A stretch of DNA of 29,459 nt. Origin: Minisyncoccota bacterium (GTDB lineage Bacteria; Patescibacteriota; Minisyncoccia; Phycocordibacterales; UBA9973). Where the stretch lies: contig DATHJV010000093.1 of the NCBI GenBank assembly GCA_035489645.1, forward strand, positions 1 through 29,459, written 5' to 3'. This document shows, in pieces, positions 6,285 to 18,979 of the stretch. The notes under the pieces are model-generated. The model did no database searches. It was given only the letters and a program-made list of their open reading frames with translations, and had not been told where the DNA came from. The first letter of the stretch is position 1. The number at the start of each line of letters is the position of its first letter. Both the position numbers and the translations under genes were made by a program.

Positions 6285-6629
6285 ATGAAAACAATAGTCC
6301 ACTGGATTGTCTCAACGCTCGCCATATTATTAACAGCCTATCTTTTGCCAGGAGCTCACGTCGACGGAATAGTCGCGGCACTTATCTTGGCTGTAGTTCT
6401 CGGCGTTATTAACGCCGTTCTACGCCCACTTCTTGTATTACTCACTTTCCCTATCACTATTTTAACTCTCGGACTTTTTGTGCTTGTAATAAATGGGCTC
6501 CTAGTTATGCTCGCCTCCTATATTGTGCCCGGGTTTACAGTTGATAGTTTCTGGTCCGCGCTTGCCTTCGGCATTGTGCTCGCAATCGTAAGCTCGGTAC
6601 TGCATATGTTTGAAAAAAAAGTCTTATAA
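6285..6629 (+). CDS. YvlD-like 4-TM membrane protein (phage holin superfamily IV)
   Basis: Four hydrophobic helices with the family pattern LGVINAVLRPLL...LTFPITILTLGLFVLVINGLLV...VPGFTVDSFWSAL. Confidence 0.88.
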   Translation: MKTIVHWIVSTLAILLTAYLLPGAHVDGIVAALILAVVLGVINAVLRPLLVLLTFPITILTLGLFVLVINGLLVMLASYIVPGFTVDSFWSALAFGIVLAIVSSVLHMFEKKVL

Positions 6630-7079
6630 CTTTCTCTCTCGAGCAAGATCTATCGTGTGTCTTCCAGTTTGCACTTTTAAAATAGTTTTGTCAGAATTCT
6701 GCAAAGCATCTTTGATCCTCTCAACCTGCTTAGGAAAAGTGTTTGCCGGCAACTTATCCGTTTCAAAAAATTTAATCTGATCAGCTTCGTTATTTAATGT
6801 CGCTCGTCCGCCGATAATTTTACATTTAAAAGATAGAGCTAAATTATCTTCATCACGCTTGCTATAAAAACCGAGAAGTTTTTCAACTTCAACATCAAAT
6901 CCCGTTTCTTCTTTCACTTCCCTTTTCACACCCTCCCAAGGCGGCTCCCTGGCCTCTAGACCCCCTCCAGGTAAATTCCATAAATCATAATCCGTCCTAT
7001 GAACAAGTAAAACTCTGTTTTGCTCGTCAAAAATTATTCCGAACACCCCTACAGTAAATTTTGCTCTATTTTTTTTCAT
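6624..7079 (-). CDS. NUDIX hydrolase
   Basis: Nudix box GGGLEAREPPWEGVKREVKEETG. The ATG at 7079 (MKKNRAK) is preferred over the track start at 7112, which crosses the att site. Confidence 0.9.
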   Translation of the reverse strand: MKKNRAKFTVGVFGIIFDEQNRVLLVHRTDYDLWNLPGGGLEAREPPWEGVKREVKEETGFDVEVEKLLGFYSKRDEDNLALSFKCKIIGGRATLNNEADQIKFFETDKLPANTFPKQVERIKDALQNSDKTILKVQTGRHTIDLARERKL

Positions 7080-7082
7080 AAT

Positions 7083-7089
7083 TGCGGGC
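7083..7089 (+). repeat. Left attachment-site core TGCGGGC
   Basis: Identical to 18865-18871 and located 3 nt from the NUDIX start codon. Confidence 0.8.
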
Positions 7090-7173
7090 TGTAAAAATCT
7101 AGAATGGAACACTATTCAGAGTATGGTCCTTGATTGGAATAGTGTCTTCCGAGGCCTAGATCTTGTAAATTAA
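7090..7173 (+). other. Orphan 27-codon 3' end of the recombinase gene (excised-state C terminus)
   Basis: After the core codons GCG GGC (Ala-Gly, the same frame as in the recombinase) it reads CKNLEWNTIQSMVLDWNSVFRGLDLVN-TAA. Confidence 0.75.
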
Positions 7174-7422
7174 TATAATAAACCAGCATTATTCTAGCAT
7201 ATAAAGGGCGCTGGGGGCATCTGGAGGCCGGAAAAACACTACCGGTGGCTCATTCTAGGTAATTATGTATGACTTCCCTAAAAAGGCTTTGATTTTTCAT
7301 CTAGGGGGTAGGCGGCAGTCATTTTGAAATGAAATTTAGTTTCCTGAATCTAAAAAAATTCTGCCCGATTTTAATAGATGTTGATAACTTAACACATGAC
7401 CTCTCATAACATAATTGAAAAT

Positions 7423-7451
7423 TTGCTATAAAAAATCAAAGAACATATACT
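7423..7451 (+). promoter_or_regulatory. Leaderless-type promoter of the ImmA/IrrE gene
   Basis: TTGCTA (7423-7428), 17 bp, TATACT (7446-7451), with ATG at 7458. Confidence 0.6.
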
Positions 7452-7457
7452 AAAAAC

Positions 7458-7958
7458 ATGGAGGAATCAATGAAAAAAATTTTAGAGCAGTATTCCAACA
7501 CTGTGCCTGTGCCAGTTGTTGCAATTGCTGGTGAATTAAATGCAGAGGTGTATGAATCTTCCAGTTTACCTGATTCAAAATCAGGTTCAATAAGCAAGAA
7601 AGATAAGGGCGGTTATGAAATTATTGTCAACGCCAACCATTCAACAAATAGGAAAAGATTTACTATTGCTCATGAAATCGCTCATATTATTTTACACAGT
7701 GATATTTTGGAGAAAGCCAAAACTCATGAGGATTTTTCTAAAAGGCCAGTTATGTTGAATAGAGATTCAAAGGATGCTGGTATAAAAATAGAAAAAGAAG
7801 CTGATAAATTAGCGGGGCAAATCTTGATGCCAGATGATTTATTTAAAAATATATGGGGAATGTCTAATTCTGTCGAAGAAGTAGCAGATTATTTCCAAGT
7901 TTCTCAGTCAGCTGCTAACATGAGAGCAGGGATGCTTTTTAAACAATCAATTTATTGA
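7458..7958 (+). CDS. ImmA/IrrE family zinc metallopeptidase (stand-alone, no HTH)
   Basis: RKRFTIAHEIAH (HExxH), EKEADKLAGQILMP, and C-terminal VADYFQVSQSA. Confidence 0.9.
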   Translation: MEESMKKILEQYSNTVPVPVVAIAGELNAEVYESSSLPDSKSGSISKKDKGGYEIIVNANHSTNRKRFTIAHEIAHIILHSDILEKAKTHEDFSKRPVMLNRDSKDAGIKIEKEADKLAGQILMPDDLFKNIWGMSNSVEEVADYFQVSQSAANMRAGMLFKQSIY

Positions 7959-7962
7959 TTTT

Positions 7963-8238
7963 GTGAAAAGAATTTTTACAGATGAAGAACTTAAGAATGA
8001 TGATAAGGTAAAGGGACACGAAAGAAGGCAAAAACTCCTAGATGCTTTGTCTATAGTTGCGCAGGTTGCCATTTATGTAATACCTATTTGTTTGGGAATT
8101 TTTTATGTTTTGATTCTTGGGCATAAAATAGTCATTGGGGACTGGGTTGGCCTTGAGGGCTCTATTACAAGTATGCTAATTCCTGTTATTACTTACCTAG
8201 TGGGAGTTATGACTAGATCGGGGATGTTGCCAAAATGA
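7963..8238 (+). CDS. Small 2-TM membrane protein coupled to the ImmA gene
   Basis: GTG start 4 nt after the peptidase stop. Charged N terminus followed by two hydrophobic segments. Confidence 0.7.
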   Translation: MKRIFTDEELKNDDKVKGHERRQKLLDALSIVAQVAIYVIPICLGIFYVLILGHKIVIGDWVGLEGSITSMLIPVITYLVGVMTRSGMLPK

Positions 8239-8325
8239 ATTCCAGCCACGATTTCGTAAACGCCTTTTCTTTAAATTTTTTATCATAGAGACTAGGCCAT
8301 CATCATTAAAAGTATTCATAATTTT

Positions 8326-8697
8326 TTACTTTAAATTTTTTAGATTTATTTCGGGGTCCGGGTAAACTTCATTTTCCGGGGTATATTTTATTGCTTCATG
8401 AAAATATTTTTTAGCGCTGTCGAAATTTTTAAGTTCGGCAAAGATAACCCCGATATTATTTGAGGTTCTTGAAGCAATATTATCTCGTCGAAGATATGAA
8501 TCGGCGTATTCAAAATATTTTGGCAAAATACGTCGGGTTTCCCCAATATCAAGCTGTGAGTCGGGTTGTGATCTTGCATATTCCGCGGCTTCCGCACTAA
8601 GTTGATCCATTACTGCGTTATAACAGGATAAAGCGCTTGCTAATTTTCCACTATTTTTAAAATCACTTGCTTCGTTTATTAGTTTCTGTAAATCCAT
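8326..8697 (-). CDS. Tetratricopeptide-repeat protein
   Basis: TPR-like segments ASDFKNSGKLASALSCYNAV and NNIGVIFAELKNFDSAKKYFHEAIKYTP. Confidence 0.75.
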   Translation of the reverse strand: MDLQKLINEASDFKNSGKLASALSCYNAVMDQLSAEAAEYARSQPDSQLDIGETRRILPKYFEYADSYLRRDNIASRTSNNIGVIFAELKNFDSAKKYFHEAIKYTPENEVYPDPEINLKNLK

Positions 8698-8702
8698 AAA
8701 AA

Positions 8703-11700
8703 TTAAAATTTAAACATTTTTTTCTCTTTCTGAGTGAGTTCATACATCTCCATGAACAGTTCGTCTATCTCGTTCTTTAAGGCATTTATAGTATGCGAAT
8801 CTATTGCCGGCATTTCTTTTATCGACATTAATGAAATCGGCTTTCTAGGTGTGCCTATTTTGTCGTGGTAATTCTTTATCGAATCACTAACGACTCGCTC
8901 ATATCCTTTTTCTATTGGAAAAAGATATTTGTTATCATTTTCAGTTAAAATAAGCTTATCTTTTTGGACATTCATTGAGTCAAATCGCTGTATAAGAGAA
9001 TTAATTTTCACGATGTCAGAAATAGATTTTTTTTCAAGTTCTAAAATTCTTGTTGCCAATTTTATTACACTTTCTTTCTTAGATTCTTTCTCCGCACTGT
9101 CGATTTTAGGAATACGGACAAACTCTTTTATCGTCTTAATACCGATTAAAAAACTTTTCTCATTTTGAACTTTGAATAATGCATTAAGAATATTCAAATT
9201 CAAAGAGGAATTTAATAGGGCAAATAAGTAAATCATTTCTTGTTTATTGTTGGAAGATATTAGAATCCAGTTGAAATCAAGCATTATATTTTTATCAGAA
9301 AATTTAAAGTTGTCAGGATTTATATATCTCCAAACGATTTTGTATTTTTTCTGAAATACATCGAATCCTTGAGCCCCTCCGGGCAATCTAATGTTATTTT
9401 TATCTATTGAATGACCTGATGTTTGAAGATTATAACTAGGACTATTTTGAACTAGTAGGAAATCGCCATTCTCATCATTTCTAATTTTTGATTTTAAGAA
9501 GACCAGCCCTTTATCGAAATAAAAAACATCGCTGAATTGTTTTAATGAAATTTCTGGAAGACGGTATATATCCAATTTATCCAATGCAAGGTACTTCTCA
9601 AAATAGTCTTGAAAATCAGAATTCCAAGTAATGAAATTCCAATTTTCAATTTTTTCTTTTAATTTCTGCTGTGAAATATCTTTGCTGTATTTACTACGAT
9701 TAATTTTTATCTCCCGAAATATGTTCTCGATATCCGTTTCTATGTTAGGAAAATGTACGCATTCTACCTGATTCGATTTCTTTGGTTTTTCTTTACTGCA
9801 CACGATAATCAAACTGGACGTCGGAATTTTTCTCTTTTGATTTGTACCTCTGCCAATGAACAAATTTCCGGCAAACGTAACAATTTTTTCTAAAGTGTAT
9901 TCATTCGCGAGTTGGTATCTCACTACATCAAGATCACCTGAAGTAAGTAATGTTTGAGGAACGATATAAGCAAAACGTCCATGTGGCTTTAAAAGTACGA
10001 ACCCAAGAGCCATAAAAAATGCGTAAAGGTTAGGTTTTGGGGCGTATGCTTTCTTTCTTCCAGGAACTGTATTCAAATTCCAACCATAAATGTCATTCAT
10101 TTTTATACCGCTTTCCTTATTTTGAATAGATTTGACTATTTTCACTCCCAACTTTGAACACTCGTTATAACCAATATAAGGTGGATTTCCAATTACGAAA
10201 TCAAACCGACGACGAGGAATTGTATTTGTACCCCCACCAAGTGTTGATAGACTTTGTTTCATTTCATCTAGGTCGCGTTCATCACGCATAAATCCGTCAT
10301 ATCTCCATCCGAGAGCGAGGCGACCTTGCATTTCGTTATAGAGATTAGCTTTTCGGCTTCCCATGTCTTCAATGAATTCTGAAATTGAGTCTTCTGTCAT
10401 GAAAAGCTTTAATTTTTTATCAATCGGATTGTTATATTTTTCGCTTATAACTGATGGAAGTAAACGCATAAGAATACTCATTTCAGCAAGGTAGAGGGGA
10501 AATTCGTCAACATCTAACCCGAAGATGTTCTGATTGACATCTTCTTCAATTTTTTTAGATTCTATGGCTGTCGTATAACTTCCTGCTTGCATTATCTCGC
10601 GTACCGCTGAGTAAAGAAATGTTCCGCTTCCACAACTTGGATCAATAATTGAAATATTTTTGTGATTTCTTTTTTTTATTTCATCACTCGTATATCCAAT
10701 CTCCCTTAACATAAAATCAACGACTTCGGGGTCCGTAAAATACTGCCCATAGTTCTTCTCTTCGAATAACTCCTTGAGATAATTTTCGTAAATCGCACCA
10801 AAAATATCGTTCTGTATATTGGCAAATTGATATTGCTTAATAAAGATGAAAATATCTAAAAAAGGTGACATATTCATTATGTCATCTTTACCCGAATAAA
10901 GTAATTCCTTTACTTGTTTAATAATAATCTCTTGTTCTTTGTAGAATGGTTTATATATATTCTCAGATATTCGTACACTCATTCCTTCAAGAATCATTAA
11001 GATAGCATTAAACGATCCGCTTTTTAGATGCGAATGAATTAACTTTTCCTTTTTTTTGAACTCATCTTTAAATTCATCAAAATCGTTGTCCACTAATGTT
11101 TTATATAGAATAAATTGTATAAGATACGAGTATGATATCTCAGTAGCCTTTTTTTCTTTTTTGGTGTTATCTAATATTTCATTAAAATATCCCGTGTTAA
11201 GCAATTTTGTCTTTAGTTTTTTTATAATTTTTGTTACGTCATTAAAAAAACGTTGCCTGTTTTTATCAGCCATTATTTGCATTTCAAAATGTTCCAATTT
11301 GTGTTGCCCAATGTTATCAAAAAAAGAAACATAGTAATTCACCGGTCGTATATATTCATTCCAAAAAATTAGAAAAGCTTTTGTATCTGAGAATATTTCA
11401 TCAAGTGTAAATATAAAGTATTTTTGGTCATTTACATCACCATAATAAAAACGCCATTCGTTTCCATCGGTGAGAATCCCATATTTTTTATCAAATGCCG
11501 TTCTATATTTATCTATCTGCCATTCTCCACTCTTTATTTTTTTAAACTTCTCGACTTCAAGTGGGATTACTATATCTTGATCAATGAAGATTACGGCATC
11601 AACCTGCCCTGCTTTATTACCTTCTTCTTTAAGAAATTCATTCCTTCTTTTTTCTTGTGTGGTTGATTTATACCCTTCCTTGAGATTAAAAAGTTCGGGG

Positions 11701-11810
11701 CAAGTCAATAAGTCAAACACAAATCGTTGGACACCACTTCCAATTTCACTACCTAAATAGTGCTCTTTTTCTTTTTTCCATATTTGCTGTAATTCTCGAA
11801 TAGTTTTCAT
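8703..11810 (-). CDS. Type IIG-like restriction-modification fusion (nuclease + N6-adenine methyltransferase + target recognition domain)
   Basis: N-terminal HsdR_N-like region VD..EVEK..QIDKY..YGILTDGNEWRFY, motif X GQYFTD, motif I IIDPSCGSGTFL, motif IV GNPPY, and a TRD-like C terminus. Confidence 0.9.
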   Translation of the reverse strand: MKTIRELQQIWKKEKEHYLGSEIGSGVQRFVFDLLTCPELFNLKEGYKSTTQEKRRNEFLKEEGNKAGQVDAVIFIDQDIVIPLEVEKFKKIKSGEWQIDKYRTAFDKKYGILTDGNEWRFYYGDVNDQKYFIFTLDEIFSDTKAFLIFWNEYIRPVNYYVSFFDNIGQHKLEHFEMQIMADKNRQRFFNDVTKIIKKLKTKLLNTGYFNEILDNTKKEKKATEISYSYLIQFILYKTLVDNDFDEFKDEFKKKEKLIHSHLKSGSFNAILMILEGMSVRISENIYKPFYKEQEIIIKQVKELLYSGKDDIMNMSPFLDIFIFIKQYQFANIQNDIFGAIYENYLKELFEEKNYGQYFTDPEVVDFMLREIGYTSDEIKKRNHKNISIIDPSCGSGTFLYSAVREIMQAGSYTTAIESKKIEEDVNQNIFGLDVDEFPLYLAEMSILMRLLPSVISEKYNNPIDKKLKLFMTEDSISEFIEDMGSRKANLYNEMQGRLALGWRYDGFMRDERDLDEMKQSLSTLGGGTNTIPRRRFDFVIGNPPYIGYNECSKLGVKIVKSIQNKESGIKMNDIYGWNLNTVPGRKKAYAPKPNLYAFFMALGFVLLKPHGRFAYIVPQTLLTSGDLDVVRYQLANEYTLEKIVTFAGNLFIGRGTNQKRKIPTSSLIIVCSKEKPKKSNQVECVHFPNIETDIENIFREIKINRSKYSKDISQQKLKEKIENWNFITWNSDFQDYFEKYLALDKLDIYRLPEISLKQFSDVFYFDKGLVFLKSKIRNDENGDFLLVQNSPSYNLQTSGHSIDKNNIRLPGGAQGFDVFQKKYKIVWRYINPDNFKFSDKNIMLDFNWILISSNNKQEMIYLFALLNSSLNLNILNALFKVQNEKSFLIGIKTIKEFVRIPKIDSAEKESKKESVIKLATRILELEKKSISDIVKINSLIQRFDSMNVQKDKLILTENDNKYLFPIEKGYERVVSDSIKNYHDKIGTPRKPISLMSIKEMPAIDSHTINALKNEIDELFMEMYELTQKEKKMFKF

Positions 11811-11818
11811 TACCCGAC

Positions 11819-11847
11819 ATTATATCCTTTAACCTGCTTATTTCCAA
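11819..11847 (-). promoter_or_regulatory. Internal promoter of the RM gene
   Basis: Minus strand TTGGAA (11847-11842), 17 bp, TATAAT (11824-11819), with ATG 8 nt downstream. Confidence 0.6.
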
Positions 11848-12633
11848 TTAAAGCAATGTATCTTCTTTTTTGGCTAACGATTCTAGGGCTTCAGTGATTT
11901 TGTTTTTTGCGAACCAATTTTTAGGATTTAATTTTATTACTTTTTGAAGCGCTTCAATAGCTCGCTTGATACCAATATTGTCTTTTTGGTAAGATTCAAA
12001 ATTAGTGGATAGATAAAATAAAGCTTTTCTAAAATACCCAATTTCATTTAATCTTGGGAAAAACCGTACATCCAATATGAAATCATCTAATGTATTAGTA
12101 GAAAAGAGATTTGGGGAATGATACATAAGCATATCCAATAGGTCAATGAATTCAGGAATATTCCATGGGTCTCCTGCCTTTCGTTTTTTACCCGTGGCTC
12201 TATACCAAAATTCATATAATTCTAGTTTTAATGATTCATCATAATTTTTTACCGCCTCGAGATACTTACCCATTTTGTAATAGACATCTCCACGAAATGA
12301 CCACAAAAAGTAATATTGCTTTTCTGCTTCGAGGCAACGATCAAGGACTTTCAGTGATTCTTCATATCTTTTGGCCAAATATAAAGATCTACCATAATAA
12401 CAAAGTGTAAAGAAATGACTTGAATCAGTTTTTAAAATTTCTTCAGAAACATTAATACAGTCCCGAATTTTCTTAGCTTTATATAATTCTTTAAGTCTTA
12501 AAAAAAGCTCCTCTATTTTGGGCCATATACTCAAATCCCTCAAACCTCTTTTGACGAGACTAGAATCCTCACTAAGCTGTTCTAGGGAATAATAAGGGGA
12601 TGCTATTATTTGTTTATCATTATCCTTGTCCAT
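11848..12633 (-). CDS. Tetratricopeptide-repeat protein
   Basis: YYGRSLYLAKRYEESLKVLDRCL, WSFRGDVYYKMGKYLEAVKNYDESLKL, AIEALQKVIKLNPKN. Confidence 0.85.
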   Translation of the reverse strand: MDKDNDKQIIASPYYSLEQLSEDSSLVKRGLRDLSIWPKIEELFLRLKELYKAKKIRDCINVSEEILKTDSSHFFTLCYYGRSLYLAKRYEESLKVLDRCLEAEKQYYFLWSFRGDVYYKMGKYLEAVKNYDESLKLELYEFWYRATGKKRKAGDPWNIPEFIDLLDMLMYHSPNLFSTNTLDDFILDVRFFPRLNEIGYFRKALFYLSTNFESYQKDNIGIKRAIEALQKVIKLNPKNWFAKNKITEALESLAKKEDTLL

Positions 12634-13402
12634 GCTTTTTCTTTAGTTCATCAAGCATATTCTCCTTTTTTGCAATATCCTCGAGCACTTTTTCTGAGAG
12701 TTCACTCAAAATGTCTCGCTTTTGTTTTTTTGCCTTCTCCATATTTTCTTTTAAAATGGCCCACTCGGAATGTTTTAGTTGTTCTTGTTCGTAAAGAGCT
12801 TTTTTAATTGATTCTTCTAATCGTGCTAATTTAATTTTCAGTTCCTTGATAGTTTTTTTATCAACATTTCCAACATCTTCACCTTTATCAATTGCGCGCA
12901 AAGTTTCTAAATTGCCGTCTGCATAGGCTTTATTGATCTTTTTCATCGTTGTGTCATCGCCTCCAGCGAGGTCGGGGTGAAACTTATGAGCAAGCTTGTA
13001 GAATAGCTTTTTAAGTTCGTCTTTTTCTTCTTTAGAAATAGTTTTTTTTTTAGTATCTCTTTCTTCCTCGTTAATTTTTTTGTATTCTTTCTCAATCTGT
13101 TCACGTCTCTTTTTCAGGGTTTCTTCTACAGCTCTTTGCGCATCTTCAAAAGAAAAACCTTTATTCATTAAATCCTCAATTTTCTTGAATTTTAAAATTT
13201 CAAGATTAGTTGCATCCAATTTTAGATAGAGTCTACCTATCTTTAAATCGTATTCTTGCTTAACAATAGATAAATCAATTTTGAATCGCTCTATTTTTTC
13301 TACAAGCTCAATAAGTATTTTTTCTTTTTCGGCAATGATGCGTTTAAGTTCACGTTTTTCTAATAGTTCATCTAGAGCTATATTTGATTTTATTATTTTC
13401 AT
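12620..13402 (-). CDS. Coiled-coil protein with an internal J domain
   Basis: ELKKLFYKLAHKFHPDLAGGDDTTMKKINKAY (HPD motif) flanked by long coiled coils. Confidence 0.85.
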   Translation of the reverse strand: MKIIKSNIALDELLEKRELKRIIAEKEKILIELVEKIERFKIDLSIVKQEYDLKIGRLYLKLDATNLEILKFKKIEDLMNKGFSFEDAQRAVEETLKKRREQIEKEYKKINEEERDTKKKTISKEEKDELKKLFYKLAHKFHPDLAGGDDTTMKKINKAYADGNLETLRAIDKGEDVGNVDKKTIKELKIKLARLEESIKKALYEQEQLKHSEWAILKENMEKAKKQKRDILSELSEKVLEDIAKKENMLDELKKKHGQG

Positions 13403-13405
13403 AGA

Positions 13406-14377
13406 CTAATTTTCTGGATAAGCTTTATCTGACAAATCTTTGTTGTGAGCTCCCCACCAGTTATTCCATTCGGTCATAAGTTTAATCCCATCTAGCTGTT
13501 TTTGAGCATTTAGTAATGCAACCTCACTGTAAGCATCACTGTCCTCTTGGGCTTTCATCCCTTCATAATATATTTCACTTCCAGCAATAAACTTATTACG
13601 ATAATAATTTTTTAAATCCGGATGAATATAGTCAAGAAAAGCATCGTCAACTTTTTTGCCTAAAGCGATACCCTCTTCCATTTTGGAATATATCTGCTGT
13701 AGTGTTGCTTTTGACTCAGTATCACTTGATTGGTTGTTTGATTTGTTAATTAAATCACTAGCCTCGTACAGAACTGTAAGTGATTGCACAAAATTTTCAC
13801 GATCATCCTTAAATTGTTGGGGAAAACTGGAGGGGGTCATTGAAAAAAATAACCAAAATAAAAATAAAAACAAAGGAAAATAAAACCAATTTTCTTTGAA
13901 AAATTCTTTAATTCTTTTTTGTTTGGCTGAGTTAATAAACTCATTAATTCCAAAAAAAGCTATAGCTCCGACAAGCAATACTTTCACCACAAACCAGACC
14001 CAAGTCCAAACGTTATTAAAAGATGTGTGAATTCCAAAGATTAATATAATACTCCATATTATTAGTGAAACTATTGAAAACAATAGCAATGGTATAAAAA
14101 GAAATGAAGCTATTCCAATTGCTATAGGTGTTCCAATGATTAAAGCAACCAATCCCCAAACTATCGATCCTTTCTGGAATAGAACAATCGCCCACCATAC
14201 CATTGATAGCCCAGCAGAAGCGATATACAAAAAACGAAGGACAGTAAAAATTAACAGGAGTAAACCTCCCCCTATAACAGCTCCCCCAATGCCAATTCCA
14301 CTGAAAACTTTTTTTACAAAACTTTTCTTTTCTATAAACACACTATCCACTTTTTCTATTTCTTGTTCATTTTCCAT
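13406..14377 (-). CDS. Hypothetical multi-pass membrane protein with a soluble C-terminal domain
   Basis: About five or six hydrophobic segments in residues 25-180, followed by a polar helical region. Confidence 0.75.
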   Translation of the reverse strand: MENEQEIEKVDSVFIEKKSFVKKVFSGIGIGGAVIGGGLLLLIFTVLRFLYIASAGLSMVWWAIVLFQKGSIVWGLVALIIGTPIAIGIASFLFIPLLLFSIVSLIIWSIILIFGIHTSFNNVWTWVWFVVKVLLVGAIAFFGINEFINSAKQKRIKEFFKENWFYFPLFLFLFWLFFSMTPSSFPQQFKDDRENFVQSLTVLYEASDLINKSNNQSSDTESKATLQQIYSKMEEGIALGKKVDDAFLDYIHPDLKNYYRNKFIAGSEIYYEGMKAQEDSDAYSEVALLNAQKQLDGIKLMTEWNNWWGAHNKDLSDKAYPEN

Positions 14378-14387
14378 ATTTTTTCAT

Positions 14388-14521
14388 AAAAAAAGCTAGC
14401 TGATAATGGCTAGCATGGAAGCACAGAACCCCACGCCAGCTAGGTCTTGCGACCCTATACAAGTTTCCCTGTATAGCCCTTGGAAGAGTTGCTGAACGCG
14501 GGGTTCAGTATCTTCCAAGGG
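14388..14521 (-). ncRNA. Structured 5' leader / candidate attenuator RNA of the cargo operon
   Basis: 11-bp stem 14477-14487/14511-14521, GAAA-capped stem 14455-14476, GCAA-capped stem 14443-14454, and a GCTAGC hairpin 14395-14414 plus T7 just upstream of the ATG. The GNRA loops and G.U pairs only work on the minus strand. Confidence 0.65.
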
Positions 14522-14619
14522 TCTTTAAACCATATCTCATATGGATACGAGGGTTAGGTCATTCTTATTTAGTTGTGTCTATATAATACAACTTCTTTAG
14601 GGTTTATGCACAATTGATA

Positions 14620-14648
14620 TTGACTCTTAAATAAAGTATTTGTATTAT
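14620..14648 (+). promoter_or_regulatory. Sigma70-type promoter of the replication/integration arm
   Basis: TTGACT (14620-14625), 17 bp, TATTAT (14643-14648). Confidence 0.7.
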
Positions 14649-14666
14649 GGAAGTAATTAAATATTA

Positions 14667-14780
14667 TTCCTGACGGAACAACCGAGGGAACTTTAGTAAA
14701 AACCTTTTTGGTTATACTACGAGTTTCTCGTATCGTCAGGAAAACTCTAGAAAAACCAGCAAGGAAAGTTGGTTTTTTTG
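14667..14780 (+). ncRNA. Structured short transcript or leader ending in an intrinsic terminator
   Basis: TTCCTGACG (14667-14675)/CGTCAGGAA (14734-14742) closes internal hairpins. Terminator AAAAACCAGC/GTTGGTTTTT (14751-14777) is followed by further T runs. Confidence 0.55.
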
Positions 14781-14890
14781 TTTTTTAAACCACAAACGAT
14801 TATTAATTTTTTTAGTTTTTTGTGTTGGTCTTGGATAAAAACTTAGTTGTTCGCTTCCAAGGCCAGCATAAGAAACAGCGAACAACTAAA

Positions 14891-16684
14891 ATGGAAAACA
14901 TAGAAAATAATGAAGAGGAATTTACTCCTCAAGAGAGGAACGAGATTATTTCAAAGGCTCAGAGTTTTCTCGATAAAGATAATTTAAATGAAAAAGGCGA
15001 GTCAGATGCTGAAGAAGATGATGAAATTAAGGAGATACAAAAAGAATTAGAAGAGATACCGTCAGATACACCTAAGGTAGAACTTATGGAAAAATTAAGC
15101 CTTGTTTTTGTAATGCTTTGTGATATTGAGAGAATTACTGCAGAAATGTTTATCTTGTATAACATTAAGGAACACTTTAAAATTACCAAAGAGGATGCTA
15201 AAAAATACATTACTCATTTAAACAGCTTAAGGAAACAGTTAAGTGGACATAAAAAAGAGGAAAAGGCAGAAAATCATTTACCCTTAATTCTTGATAGGGA
15301 CATAGACTCCGGGGAGGTACTCGATGCTATTTTAGAAATAGGAATTATAGATAAGAAAACTCTACATATCATCATAGCCATAGCTATTTCAGCACAGTTG
15401 CGCCTTAATCCGCCATTATGGTTATTCCTAATTGGTGTTCCATCATCATTTAAAACGGAGTTTGTGGGCCTTCTGGGAGACATGAAAGAGGTATTTACAC
15501 TCGATACCCTTACCGAAAATGCGTTTGCTTCCGGATTTATACCTCCAGACGGTTCAGATCCCCAAGACTTACTTCCTCTTTTGGATAATAGATGTTTCAT
15601 CATCAAGGATTTAAATACTATTTTCTCAATGAATGAAGATATGGTCAAAAAGATACTGGGAGATCTAACCAGTATTTTTGATGGAAAGTTTGAAAAATTT
15701 ACGGCTACGAGAGGAATGATTCAGTACAATTCCCTTTTTTCAATGATAGGGTGTATTACGCCTTCGATTTTAATTAAACACTATAACTACGCAACCCAAC
15801 TTGGCCCACGTTTTCTATTTTTGCGCCTACCGGAACTTACTGATGAAGAAATGCAAAAAGGATTTAATAAATCATGGAATGAGACTGATAGGAGAAAGAA
15901 GATAATTGAAACACGGCAACTGGTTTCATCTTACTGCACACAATTAATTAAAAAAATTAAACAGTTTAAAAATAATCCTGAAACAAATGAAATTAAAAAG
16001 AAGATTAACAACATAGCTCGTTTTATTTGTAATGCTCGCGGTATTGCTATTTCCGGTAGATCAACATTTAAAAATGACGCGGGTAATGAAGTTGACTACT
16101 ACGAGATAAAAGACTGGCAGGTTGAACATCCCTGGAGGATTCTTAACCAGCTAAAATCTTTACTCACCATCTTAAGCTTTATTAACGGAAAAAATAATAT
16201 TGACGAAGAAATAATCAATATCATTAGACCTATTATCTTATCGACTATGCCAGTTGATAGATCGCAAGTTTTAAACGTACTTGCTTCAAAATGTGGACTT
16301 TCGGCAAGGGATATCTCAAAAGAAATCCGAAAATCTTCGAAAACTATTCGTAGAATATTAAAGGAATTGGAGGCGCTTAATATTGTTGATTGCTATAAAG
16401 ATTCTAAGGCGGGAGCTTCCGGAGAAGCTCCCTGGTTATATTATATCGTTCCGGAATTTGCTTCTGTGCTTGAAGCACCAATACCCCCTACGGAGTTTAT
16501 GTCCCAATCAAGAAGTCACATTAAAGAGACGGGGGAATCATACAATAAAGAAGAAATTGAGGAGGATTTAGTCGATTTAGCAAATTATTTAAACCCGGAC
16601 CGGAAAAAGCATGAGGATGGAATTGAAGTTCCTTCTAATCCTTTTAAAAAAGAGCCTCCAGATATCAAAGAATTGCCCTTTTAA
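14891..16684 (+). CDS. MCM-like AAA+ ATPase / putative replicative helicase with C-terminal winged HTH
   Basis: Variant Walker A LIGVPSSFKT, Walker B-like FIIKDL, Arg-finger-like LGPRFLFLR, sensor-2-like PWRILNQLKSL, and wHTH LSARDISKEIRKSSKTIRRILKELE. ATG 14891 is preferred over GTG 14822. Confidence 0.65.
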   Translation: MENIENNEEEFTPQERNEIISKAQSFLDKDNLNEKGESDAEEDDEIKEIQKELEEIPSDTPKVELMEKLSLVFVMLCDIERITAEMFILYNIKEHFKITKEDAKKYITHLNSLRKQLSGHKKEEKAENHLPLILDRDIDSGEVLDAILEIGIIDKKTLHIIIAIAISAQLRLNPPLWLFLIGVPSSFKTEFVGLLGDMKEVFTLDTLTENAFASGFIPPDGSDPQDLLPLLDNRCFIIKDLNTIFSMNEDMVKKILGDLTSIFDGKFEKFTATRGMIQYNSLFSMIGCITPSILIKHYNYATQLGPRFLFLRLPELTDEEMQKGFNKSWNETDRRKKIIETRQLVSSYCTQLIKKIKQFKNNPETNEIKKKINNIARFICNARGIAISGRSTFKNDAGNEVDYYEIKDWQVEHPWRILNQLKSLLTILSFINGKNNIDEEIINIIRPIILSTMPVDRSQVLNVLASKCGLSARDISKEIRKSSKTIRRILKELEALNIVDCYKDSKAGASGEAPWLYYIVPEFASVLEAPIPPTEFMSQSRSHIKETGESYNKEEIEEDLVDLANYLNPDRKKHEDGIEVPSNPFKKEPPDIKELPF

Positions 16685-16711
16685 CGGCTCATCAATTTAA
16701 AACGAAAAAAG

Positions 16712-17017
16712 ATGAAAATAACACCTAAAACTCCAATAACTACGAAAAAGAAACAAAAAGGCAGATGGGGCCGGCATAAATGGCCTTCGCGTCCGGAGGT
16801 GTTTGAAGCCTTTGCGGAGTGGATAGTTTATCCAAAATTAGTTAGAGAACCGAAAACACAGCAAGAATTTGCAAGACTACATGAAGTGTCCCCTGATACT
16901 CTTTCTGACTATAAAAAGAAACCTGAATTTTGGAAAAAGGTCGAAGAAAACAGAGAAAATCTAAAGCGAGACATCGAGAATAAGATTCTTTTGGACAAGA
17001 TAGTTTTTCCAAATTGA
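16712..17017 (+). CDS. Small HTH protein resembling the phBC6A51/terminase-small-subunit HTH
   Basis: FAEWIVYPKLVREPKTQQEFARLHEVSPDTLSDYKKKPEFWKKV matches my recollection of that family. Basic N terminus. Confidence 0.6.
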   Translation: MKITPKTPITTKKKQKGRWGRHKWPSRPEVFEAFAEWIVYPKLVREPKTQQEFARLHEVSPDTLSDYKKKPEFWKKVEENRENLKRDIENKILLDKIVFPN

Positions 17018-17039
17018 GAAAGTTGATTAGAAATATACA

Positions 17040-17192
17040 ATGATCAGCCTTGAAGAATTTAAAAAAGCATTAGGAAACCTTAAGAATGAGTTATCTGAGG
17101 AAGAAATTCTAAAACTTAGGGAAAATCAGGACCAAATGGCTGAAATCCTTTTTAATTCTTGGTTGATGGAAATTAATAAAAATAAGGTATAA
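17040..17192 (+). CDS. 50-aa acidic helical protein immediately upstream of the recombinase (not in ORF track)
   Basis: ATG 17040 to TAA 17192: MISLEEFKKALGNLKNELSEEEILKLRENQDQMAEILFNSWLMEINKNKV. Confidence 0.75.
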   Translation: MISLEEFKKALGNLKNELSEEEILKLRENQDQMAEILFNSWLMEINKNKV

Positions 17193-17200
17193 TCAATTTT

Positions 17201-18979
17201 ATGCCAGAAATTAATCAGAAAATGGAAGATGCTGTCGCATATCTACGAGTAAGCTCGAGTAAGCAATTTCAGAATGGGGAAAGTATTTTAGATCAGAATA
17301 ATATCTGTATTAATGTTGCGAAGGCGAGGAATTTAAGGATTATACCAAATGATAAGCCTTTTTTTGATGTATTCTCCGGAAGAAAGGAAACTAGGCCCAG
17401 TTATGAGGATTTAAAGGAATTTGTAAAAAAGAATCGCAATGTTAAGTACTGCATAATTAGAGGCATAGACAGATTTACTCGTAGTGGAACACTTGTTTAT
17501 GAAACGATGAAGAACGAACTAGAAAGCCTAGGCGTTCAACTCATAGATAGCTACGGTGTAATTCAGCCTTCAAAAAATACATTGGAGCATCTAGGTATTG
17601 AGTATGATTGGAGCAGAATACGCCCAAGTGAAATAACAGAACTTGTAATGGCCCAGCAAGGAAAGAGCGAAGTTAATCAAATTCTTACTCGGACCATCGG
17701 TGCAGAAATTGCTTTGGTTCGAGCTGGATATCATATAGGACCTCCCAGAGAAGGATATATAAACGCAAAAATGTTTGTTGATGGAAGGAAAAAACCCATT
17801 CAAGAGGCTGATCCGAAATATGCGCCTTTTTTTATTAAAATGTTTGAATTGCGAGCATTGGGAATATATACAGACAAAGAAATAGTGGATCAGATAAATG
17901 CTATGGGTTATCGTTCTCGTATAAGAAACAGCTGGGCTAAAAATAAAGAGAGGGTTATAGGTTCAACTGGTGGAATGAAACTTAACATAAAGCATTTCCA
18001 ACATATCATCGCAAACACTATTTACTGCGGAATTAATACACAAAAATGGCTTTCAACACCTATCAAAACTCAATATAGCGGACTTGTAAGTGTTTCCACT
18101 TTTAATAAAGCAAACAAAGGAGCTAAGTTTATAGAAGAAAAAGCAGATGGAAATATCACCATTCATAAAAATTTCAATCCGCATAGTCTAAAGAGAATTA
18201 AGGATAATCCCCTGTTTCCCTTTAAATCGGTCATACTCTGTCCTGCCTGTGAAAAACCTTTTTTGGGAAGTGTCTCAAAAGGAAAATCTGGTCAAGGCTT
18301 CCCTGCTTATCATTGTTCTAGGGGTCATAAACAATACGGAGTAAGTAAAAAGGAATTTGAAAAGCAAATTGCTCTTTTTATTAATAACTTAAAATATAAA
18401 GCAGACTTTTTTAAAAGTTTTGAGGCAACCCTTATAAATAAATACCGGGAGAAAGAAAAAGAGATTGGTGAATTCTCATTGAAAGCAAATAATAATGTAG
18501 TTGATCTTGAAAAAGAAAAGCTACAAAAGATTGATGCTTTTACTAATACTCAGAACCAAACCATACGGGCTACGCTTGAAAAACAGATAGAGGAAATACA
18601 AAAACAAATAACCGGAGCTCAAGGAGAACGCAATAAACTAGAGGTAAAAGAGAATGATATTCACGATTTTGTTAAATATGCAAAATACTTAATGGAACAC
18701 CACGAAGAAATGCTTTTAAAGCAAAAGAATTTTACTACCTTAAGGGCTCTTTTTGGCCTAGTATTTGATAAATTACCTACTTATTCTGAAATAGTTAATG
18801 GAACACCAAAACTATCTTTAGGATACAAGCTATCTGAAGAATTTACTAATGAGAAAGACTTGACTGCGGGCCCACGAGGAATCGAACCTCGGTCTTCCCT
18901 TTTGGAGAGGGAAATTCTACCTCTAAACTATGGACCCGTAAGCTCTATTTATACATTTCTGAAACGCTTTTTGCAATGA
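17201..18979 (+). CDS. Large serine recombinase (integrase)
   Basis: Catalytic AVAYLRVSS, GIDRFTRS, recombinase domain, zinc ribbon CPACEK...YHCSRGH, and coiled coil. The last 35 codons overlap the tRNA and its promoter on the opposite strand. Confidence 0.95.
   Translation: MPEINQKMEDAVAYLRVSSSKQFQNGESILDQNNICINVAKARNLRIIPNDKPFFDVFSGRKETRPSYEDLKEFVKKNRNVKYCIIRGIDRFTRSGTLVYETMKNELESLGVQLIDSYGVIQPSKNTLEHLGIEYDWSRIRPSEITELVMAQQGKSEVNQILTRTIGAEIALVRAGYHIGPPREGYINAKMFVDGRKKPIQEADPKYAPFFIKMFELRALGIYTDKEIVDQINAMGYRSRIRNSWAKNKERVIGSTGGMKLNIKHFQHIIANTIYCGINTQKWLSTPIKTQYSGLVSVSTFNKANKGAKFIEEKADGNITIHKNFNPHSLKRIKDNPLFPFKSVILCPACEKPFLGSVSKGKSGQGFPAYHCSRGHKQYGVSKKEFEKQIALFINNLKYKADFFKSFEATLINKYREKEKEIGEFSLKANNNVVDLEKEKLQKIDAFTNTQNQTIRATLEKQIEEIQKQITGAQGERNKLEVKENDIHDFVKYAKYLMEHHEEMLLKQKNFTTLRALFGLVFDKLPTYSEIVNGTPKLSLGYKLSEEFTNEKDLTAGPRGIEPRSSLLEREILPLNYGPVSSIYTFLKRFLQ
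18865..18871 (+). repeat. Right attachment-site core TGCGGGC
   Basis: Corresponds to tRNA nt 69-73 plus two trailer bases and overlaps recombinase codons 555-557 (Thr-Ala-Gly). Confidence 0.8.
18867..18937 (-). tRNA. tRNA-Trp (CCA), CCA end not encoded
   Basis: Acceptor GGGTCCA/TGGGCCC, discriminator G, anticodon arm TCCCT-CTCCAAA-AGGGA, T arm CGAGG-TTCGATT-CCTCG. Confidence 0.93.
18948..18976 (-). promoter_or_regulatory. tRNA-Trp promoter
   Basis: Minus strand TTGCAA (18976-18971), 17 bp, TATAAA (18953-18948). Confidence 0.65.

Follow-up and report, generated by a model that had tools for sequence, protein, structure and literature searches.

A large serine recombinase that exchanges its C-terminal tail on insertion of its island into a tRNA-Trp gene of a Minisyncoccota bacterium

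Introduction

An integrase rewritten by its own reaction is not new in principle, as such cases were described for Mx8 in 1999, for DsiB in 2011, and for integrative and conjugative elements (ICEs) in rumA in 2016. Here we describe a related arrangement in a Minisyncoccota bacterium, on a contig of 29,459 nucleotides (DATHJV010000093.1 of assembly GCA_035489645.1; this whole stretch is called the window), in which an 11.8-kb island occupies a tRNA-Trp gene and the attachment (att) crossover lies within int, the gene of the island's own large serine recombinase (LSR).

By description, DsiB is similar to this system. It is a Dehalococcoides serine recombinase (~540 aa) of integrative mobilizable ssrA islands (McMurdie et al. 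2011, PMC3146451), and the att crossover lies inside its gene; the 3′ end of dsiB always overlaps attL and runs antisense into an RNA gene, ssrA, and the authors proposed that DsiB may be fully functional on the circle only (PMC3146451). It differs in that the target is the transfer-messenger RNA gene (ssrA) and a second small recombinase, DsiA, is the proposed partner, and neither a conserved native tail nor an attP that mimics a tRNA T-arm was described for it. In Mx8 (Magrini et al. 1999, as cited in PMC4701971), attP is located inside the integrase gene, and integration replaces 112 residues by 13 and yields a less active prophage form; going by that secondary account, Mx8 Int/IntX is the only such case with functional evidence of a difference between the isoforms. 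As reported there, however, the Mx8 enzyme belongs to the tyrosine recombinases, and the exchange affects a large portion of the protein. In streptococcal ICEs inserted in rumA, attR lies inside the serine integrase gene, giving a different C terminus when the element is excised (Ambroset et al. 2016, PMC4701971); that target is a protein-coding gene rather than a tRNA gene, and the case was mentioned in passing with no analysis of tail conservation (PMC4701971).

These three closest precedents were missing from the first-pass annotation of the window, which had been made from the sequence alone and had cited SSV1 and mycobacteriophage BPs. The two cited cases are apt insofar as an att site lies inside an element gene and integration rewrites the product of that gene. 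However, SSV-type integration splits and inactivates the integrase, whereas the body of the present enzyme stays whole, and in BPs it is the repressor, not the integrase, that is truncated. The integrases of LI/A118, phiC31, SPbeta, and Bxb1 share with the present enzyme its fold, a motif placed 4–5 bp further out in attP, a coiled-coil motif, and small directionality factors, but their att sites lie outside int, are near-palindromic, and usually target protein genes. Compared with these phage LSRs, the present family targets a tRNA end, has no detectable dyad symmetry in attP, and carries two extra motif copies inside int. A literature search on serine recombinases of the candidate phyla radiation at tRNA genes returned nothing relevant. 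What is new relative to the Mx8, DsiB, and rumA papers is the conserved tail motif, its dual coding as DNA and protein, and the size of the family.

Results

The island is inserted at the 3′ end of tRNA-Trp with its crossover inside int

The window is an entire contig of 29.5 kb from a small genome (847 kb, i.e., 0.85 Mb, in 112 contigs). Re-reading of the open reading frames (ORFs) and of the sequence upheld the first-pass claim that a 7-bp core, TGCGGGC, lies within the LSR ORF of 592 aa at Thr-Ala-Gly, codons 555–557 (ACT GCG GGC), and has a second copy at a spacing of 11,782 bp (Table 1). Residues 1–557 of the LSR come from the element and residues 558–592 from the antisense strand of tRNA-Trp and the DNA upstream of the tRNA, the last 35 codons running antisense across the tRNA gene and past its 5′ end. 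The left core is followed in the same frame by 27 open codons (7090–7170) and then TAA (7171–7173). Both this far-end frame, which corresponds to a predicted excised form of 584 aa, and the 35-codon antisense-tRNA tail had been called in the first-pass annotation; they were substantiated by re-reading the frames and by homology to P0004, described below. The right core covers four terminal acceptor-stem bases, the discriminator, and two trailer bases of tRNA-Trp; the tRNA-Trp gene therefore stays complete. Between the cores the GC content is 0.30–0.35 vs 0.38–0.48 in the flanks.

The breakpoints were confirmed in three independent ways. First, P0004, the closest homologue with an uninterrupted gene end (77% identity), reads ...ATG GCG GGC TGT GAA AAC CTG GAA TGG AAC ACT... 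through to its stop, and the window matches it codon for codon, with the end of int corresponding up to GGC and the far end of the island from TGT on; several of the differences are synonymous. Second, in a congeneric genome (G009) tRNA-Trp is followed by a small ORF and the Nudix orthologue (81% identity), the island being absent between them. Third, one contig from the source sample joins position 7082 to 18865 and so skips 11,782 bp, seven bases being assignable to either side. This empty-site contig has a depth of 2.1 vs 7.5–9 for the occupied form, and unitigs break at 7060–7089 and 18865–18894. These data show that the LSR inserted the island at the 3′ end of tRNA-Trp by a crossover inside int.

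The core repeat by itself is weak and non-significant evidence, because TGCGGGC occurs five times in the window vs 1.6 expected. This count is what could be said for a chance repeat, in which the 7-bp cores would be coincidental and the extension of the ORF over the tRNA an annotation accident. That explanation is refuted by homology on both sides of both cores, by empty sites in a relative and in the sample, and by dozens of parallel elements, leaving it a practically negligible probability.

The integrase itself has a recognizable domain set on one ORF. PF00239 matched residues 11–116 (expectation value [E] 4.8e-12) with the catalytic motif YLRVSS, and the catalytic Arg and Ser are invariant in 114 homologues; PF07508 (Recombinase) scored 21.0 bits, marginally below its cut-off of 21.1. 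The zinc-ribbon residues C354, C357, H378, and C379 are likewise invariant among homologues. All domains are carried by the single 592-aa ORF, unlike the partitioned SSV-type integrase.

The stored tail is the true C terminus of the integrase and recurs across the family

A total of 518 proteins matched the recombinase at E ≤ 1e-10, and tail classes were read in the best 120. Within these 120, the alignment stays collinear as far as ...K-S-L-x-A/V-G/T, beyond which it diverges. About 100 of them carry antisense-tRNA tails of 4–35 aa, whose length is set by the tRNA and to which the T-loop contributes G-I-E-P in the same frame. An attached native tail, with the consensus LEWNTIxxMVxKWNxVFxxxxL, is found in 11, and two more have weaker versions. 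Over 12 aligned tails (the 11 attached ones plus the stored tail of the window), W7, N8, W17, and F21 are invariant.

Metagenomes were searched with a degenerate DNA pattern for the tail; of the 119 stretches retrieved, 63 passed the tail profile, and these gave 66 unique tails. Only two of the 66 belong to a long LSR ORF; of the remainder, most are detached (53 scored). Upstream of the detached tails the frame extends for only 1–39 codons, and they directly follow a core resembling a tRNA 3′ end (..GCG|GGC, ..GTG|AGC, sometimes CCA). Four of these loci (L087, L106, L152, and L174) show the tail, 4–7 kb of cargo, the LSR, and an antisense tRNA-Trp or tRNA-Glu, all on one strand; a fifth (L137) has the same order, and its contig ends before the tRNA. 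Because this metagenome set had been chosen through the tail, four integrated homologues were picked by protein id alone. In three of the four (L186, L187, and L188) a detached tail was found upstream on the same strand, and the fourth, at tRNA-His, has only 7 kb of upstream DNA, too little to show the far end. The contig of P0002 begins inside its element and therefore lacks the far end.

The stored tail is thus the true C terminus of the integrase, and a crossover inside int is the rule in a large family that targets tRNA-Trp, tRNA-Glu, and tRNA-His. With these homologue tail classes and paired element ends, the exchange of a stored native tail for an antisense-tRNA tail that the first-pass annotation had proposed was borne out, as was its expectation that the WN...W tail would be conserved, both attached in homologues and detached at the far ends of elements.

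A tail-profile search of genomes across the phylum gave one further tail, an orphan (LGWNTLEEEIRRWVEVF...) at L051 (G274:C7, 1500–1620); no related LSR was found in that genome, which is 83% complete. Six loci (L074, L100, L144, L172, L173, and L186) were seen to contain two or three detached tails in tandem, 0.2–1.5 kb apart, an arrangement that resembles insertions stacked or decayed at a single tRNA site.

The tail codons overlap a DNA motif that mimics the tRNA T-arm

In 9 of 9 intact elements the two att arms share the motif GAAT[C/G]GAAC at different distances from the junction: GAATGGAAC(AC), which encodes (E)-W-N-T, lies 15 nt past the junction in the P′ arm, vs 10 nt for GAATCGAAC in the tRNA arm. 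In phiC31 and SPbeta integrases the zinc-ribbon domain tells attP from attB by a common motif, which attP has 4–5 bp further from the crossover. The P′ arm thus carries a copy of the T-arm motif of the tRNA, displaced outward by 5 bp, which corresponds to the classical attP/attB difference. The shared cores contain the crossover and place it to within 4–8 bp. That the recognized element is the universal tRNA T-arm accounts for the moves of the family among tRNA-Trp, tRNA-Glu, and tRNA-His. At one locus (L186, 2240–2270), the P′ arm repeats 19–21 bp of tRNA-arm sequence (through GGAATCGAA), followed by the shifted GAATGGAAC, so that both registers are adjacent.

Six copies of TGGAACAC occur in the window, all of them within the island. 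Two lie inside int, 106 bp apart and oriented as in the P′ arm copy (Table 1); the others include those at 17485 and, on the minus strand, at 14128 and 15435. The two int copies are kept, without any synonymous variation, in 16 of 17 loci, even where protein identity falls to 40%, whereas neighboring Glu, His, Gly, and Thr codons vary freely around them. The TGGAACAC copies inside int may be accessory binding sites.

The tail is predicted to form a terminal helix beyond an intact enzyme body

An AlphaFold2 model was built for P0004 from 114 family sequences, with integrated forms trimmed at the junction (mean predicted local distance difference test [pLDDT] 89, predicted template modeling score 0.70). 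Its Foldseek matches were SPbeta integrase (9dxd, ~540 columns, E 3.9e-13) and phiC31 integrase. The model places the junction in a lower-confidence linker (pLDDT 67) that follows the zinc-ribbon/coiled-coil part, with residues 570–585 of the tail folded as a helix (block pLDDT 87 and 79). Integration therefore removes one terminal helix and leaves all other domains intact. The single ORF and the position of this linker thus agree with the first-pass statement that the catalytic, DNA-binding, and coiled-coil parts remain whole. The extreme C terminus of phiC31 integrase contacts its directionality factor, and by analogy a role of the tail near the coiled-coil hinge is plausible.

Several features point to constraint on the tail as protein. 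The tail frame is open in 53 of 53 detached copies vs 5–6 of 53 in other frames. At the hydrophobic positions Leu5, Ile10, Val14, Val20, Phe24, and Leu26 the second base is near-fixed and the third-base entropy is 1.5–1.8 bits. Identity amounts to 64% over codons 10–28, 41% past the stop, and 30% in the chromosomal flank. To judge from these alignments, clear conservation is limited to the hydrophobic face and to the Trp, Asn, and Phe positions.

Weighing a role for the tail against rival explanations

Taken as a whole, tail exchange by LSR insertion with a tail that is relevant to the integrase is probably the best explanation of the locus. On balance, we also favor the view that the remainder of the tail, beyond what the DNA motif accounts for, would matter as protein, through activity, directionality, or stability. 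Several observations, both on the tail itself and on the mobility of the island, weigh against this reading. Part of the tail conservation (Trp-Asn-Thr) is, judged from codon usage, imposed by the DNA recognition motif and not by the protein. These codons are fixed because the tRNA-mimicking motif overlaps them: in all 66 tails AAC encodes the first Asn, whereas both Asn codons are found for the second; TGGAA reappears at the second Trp-Asn. Dyad symmetry was not above background in 11 attP sequences, unlike in textbook LSR sites. Moreover, at codons not forced by the search pattern, the ratio of nonsynonymous to synonymous polymorphism (pN/pS) among detached tails was 0.56 overall, with pS saturated, and ~0.9 among closer pairs; variable tail positions therefore evolve almost freely.

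The synonymous fixation of Trp-Asn-Thr where it coincides with the T-arm mimic and the pN/pS of 0.56–0.9 at unforced codons are both points in favor of a by-product of compaction, in which the P′ arm overlaps the last int codons, the tail is tolerated read-through, and the isoforms are equivalent, with no regulatory meaning. Also in line with this explanation, C-terminal residues of the SPbeta and phiC31 integrases are disordered in cryo-electron microscopy maps, and McMurdie et al. termed the variable C terminus of DsiB "a trivial explanation" (PMC3146451). Conservation, however, reaches 40–70 bp past the crossover, beyond the 25-bp half-site; the hydrophobic periodicity is helix-like with free third bases; the stop is kept 27–40 codons after the core with the frame open in all detached copies; and AlphaFold2 gives the tail helix high confidence. 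We consider compaction alone, the main rival, a rather unlikely account, which still deserves weight.

The remaining points against a tail-dependent, mobile system concern the circular state. Among the junctions that the first-pass annotation had predicted, the empty site was found in the source-sample contigs, but the circle (attP) junction was not seen among them. The shorter side of the empty-site contig is only 23 nt, and this contig may derive from a strain that never had the island rather than from excision. In addition, the native-tail P0004 sits on contigs of 448–618 kb; an attached tail is therefore not always a free circle, and a large replicon can retain an intact attP. The native-tail contigs showed neither a terminal overlap nor a tRNA.

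The unseen circle junction would also suit a one-way ("suicidal") integration, in which the tail is essential and the integrated enzyme is dead, as in SSV-type archaeal integrases, and only a second copy providing the full-length integrase could release the island. Islands that stay and decay are similarly suggested by the remnants and stacked tails found at tRNA sites (G016 and the six tandem loci named above). In G016 (L022, G016:C17, 1528–1815), the last ~105 codons of a related integrase abut tRNA-Trp at the same Leu-Thr-Ala-Gly junction, and the remainder of the integrase gene is replaced by other DNA; alongside the empty-site contig, this remnant also speaks for mobility. One-way integration is nonetheless very unlikely, given that the catalytic, DNA-binding, and coiled-coil parts are all kept in one intact ORF, that the in-frame state of every scored detached tail fits repeated passage via a circular state, and that empty and occupied sites coexist in the sample.

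Neighboring genes, cargo, and feature coordinates

The 50-aa ORF directly upstream of int gave no family match. It is 82–84% identical to its counterpart before int in L041 and L049, where the cargo is different, and in L183 and L185, too, gene calling placed a 50-aa ORF ahead of int. On this conserved position it is a candidate integrase partner or recombination directionality factor. The native-tail integrases of L041, L042, L183, and L185 lie in a module of a TraG/TrwB-like coupling protein, the 50-aa ORF, and the integrase, with ArdC, a small resolvase, or GmrSD nearby; the native-tail homologues P0004, P0022, and P0025 all adjoin a TraG/TrwB-like coupling protein.

Among the cargo genes, Pfam hits indicate an M78 peptidase, a restriction-modification enzyme of type IIG that resembles MmeI, TPR proteins, a J-domain-like protein, and a 620-aa winged-helix protein; the island also carries a LOOT RNA. 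On the chromosomal side, the ATG of the Nudix gene is 3 nt from the left core. A Nudix gene directly adjoins the detached tail both in the window, at a tRNA-Trp site, and in L188 (4922–5371), at a tRNA-Glu site on an unrelated contig, and one is called upstream of int on the P0008 contig. At 13400–14300 of the window, contig word depth rose to 345–1184x in all three runs over an A-rich stretch (13837–13889), most likely through low-complexity cross-matching from other organisms.

Table 1. Coordinates of the island, its attachment sites, and associated features in the window
Feature	Position	Strand	Evidence or remark
Chromosomal Nudix hydrolase gene, left flank, B arm side	6624..7079	-	Pfam NUDIX, E 1.8e-18
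Integrated island, 11,782 bp	7083..18864	.	Low GC; Pfam cargo; exactly skipped by one source-sample contig
Left core TGCGGGC, attL crossover region	7083..7089	+	Seven ambiguous bases here in the empty-site contig
Detached native C-terminal tail of the integrase (27 codons + TAA), also P′ arm of attP	7090..7173	+	Tail hidden Markov model, 52 bits, E 3.6e-16
P′ arm motif GAATGGAACAC, T-arm mimic, encodes (E)WNT; presumed zinc-ribbon-domain binding site	7102..7112	+	Offset 15 from junction
LOOT RNA (Rfam RF03000), ahead of cargo operon	14442..14560	-	Full-length, 81.6 bits vs gathering score 46.4
50-aa ORF directly upstream of int	17040..17192	+	Conserved neighbor of integrase
LSR gene int, integrated isoform, 592 aa	17201..18979	+	Resolvase and Recombinase domains
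Extra TGGAACAC copy inside int, codons L-M-E-H	18693..18700	+	Same offset in 16/17 LSR loci
Extra TGGAACAC copy inside int, codons N-G-T-P, other frame	18799..18806	+	Same offset in 16/17 LSR loci
Right core TGCGGGC, attR, encodes (Thr)-Ala-Gly	18865..18871	+	Sequence
tRNA-Trp(CCA), intact; integration target, B′ arm	18867..18937	-	Rfam tRNA 63.4 bits; ARAGORN 18866-18937
B′ arm motif GAATCGAAC, antisense of tRNA T-arm/T-loop	18879..18887	+	Offset 10; 5 bp nearer the crossover than its P′ counterpart

Discussion

The mechanism begins with an island of 11.8 kb that was inserted by its own LSR into the 3′ end of tRNA-Trp. The crossover lies within TGCGGGC, 27 codons ahead of the natural stop of int, and from this position the circle would encode a 584-aa enzyme ending in the conserved amphipathic helix. 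In the integrated 592-aa enzyme the helix is swapped for arbitrary antisense-tRNA residues, with the helix codons parked at the far end of the island. In that state the 3′ end of int is convergent with and antisense to the tRNA gene, which could damp expression further. Excision, possibly helped by the conserved 50-aa neighbor, would then restore the full enzyme.

The first-pass annotation had suggested that the tail could be a state sensor that controls directionality or stability. Because the antisense-tRNA tail is conserved in neither length nor sequence, any effect of the swap would come from loss of the native tail. By analogy with Mx8 Int/IntX, this loss may alter the activity or directionality of the integrated-state enzyme, an outcome to which we give somewhat less than an even chance. 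More tentatively still, the tail could be an intramolecular switch of directionality or activity, in which the tail helix, present on the circle only, would make the enzyme integration-competent and unidirectional, and the integrated enzyme would be either prone to excision with the 50-aa partner or damped. On this doubtful but attractive reading, one stretch of DNA might serve both as a tRNA-mimicking half-site and as the codons of the switch.

The way in which serine integrases choose direction is under active structural study, and the enzymes serve as tools of genome engineering. If the tail switch is true, it would be a natural design of a self-rewriting recombinase, transferable to engineered serine-integrase circuits. 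The window mainly contributes a clean example with clear boundaries, in which population evidence supports the empty site, and the family to which it belongs is a natural experiment, in which the same enzyme body occurs with and without a conserved terminal helix, switched by recombination.

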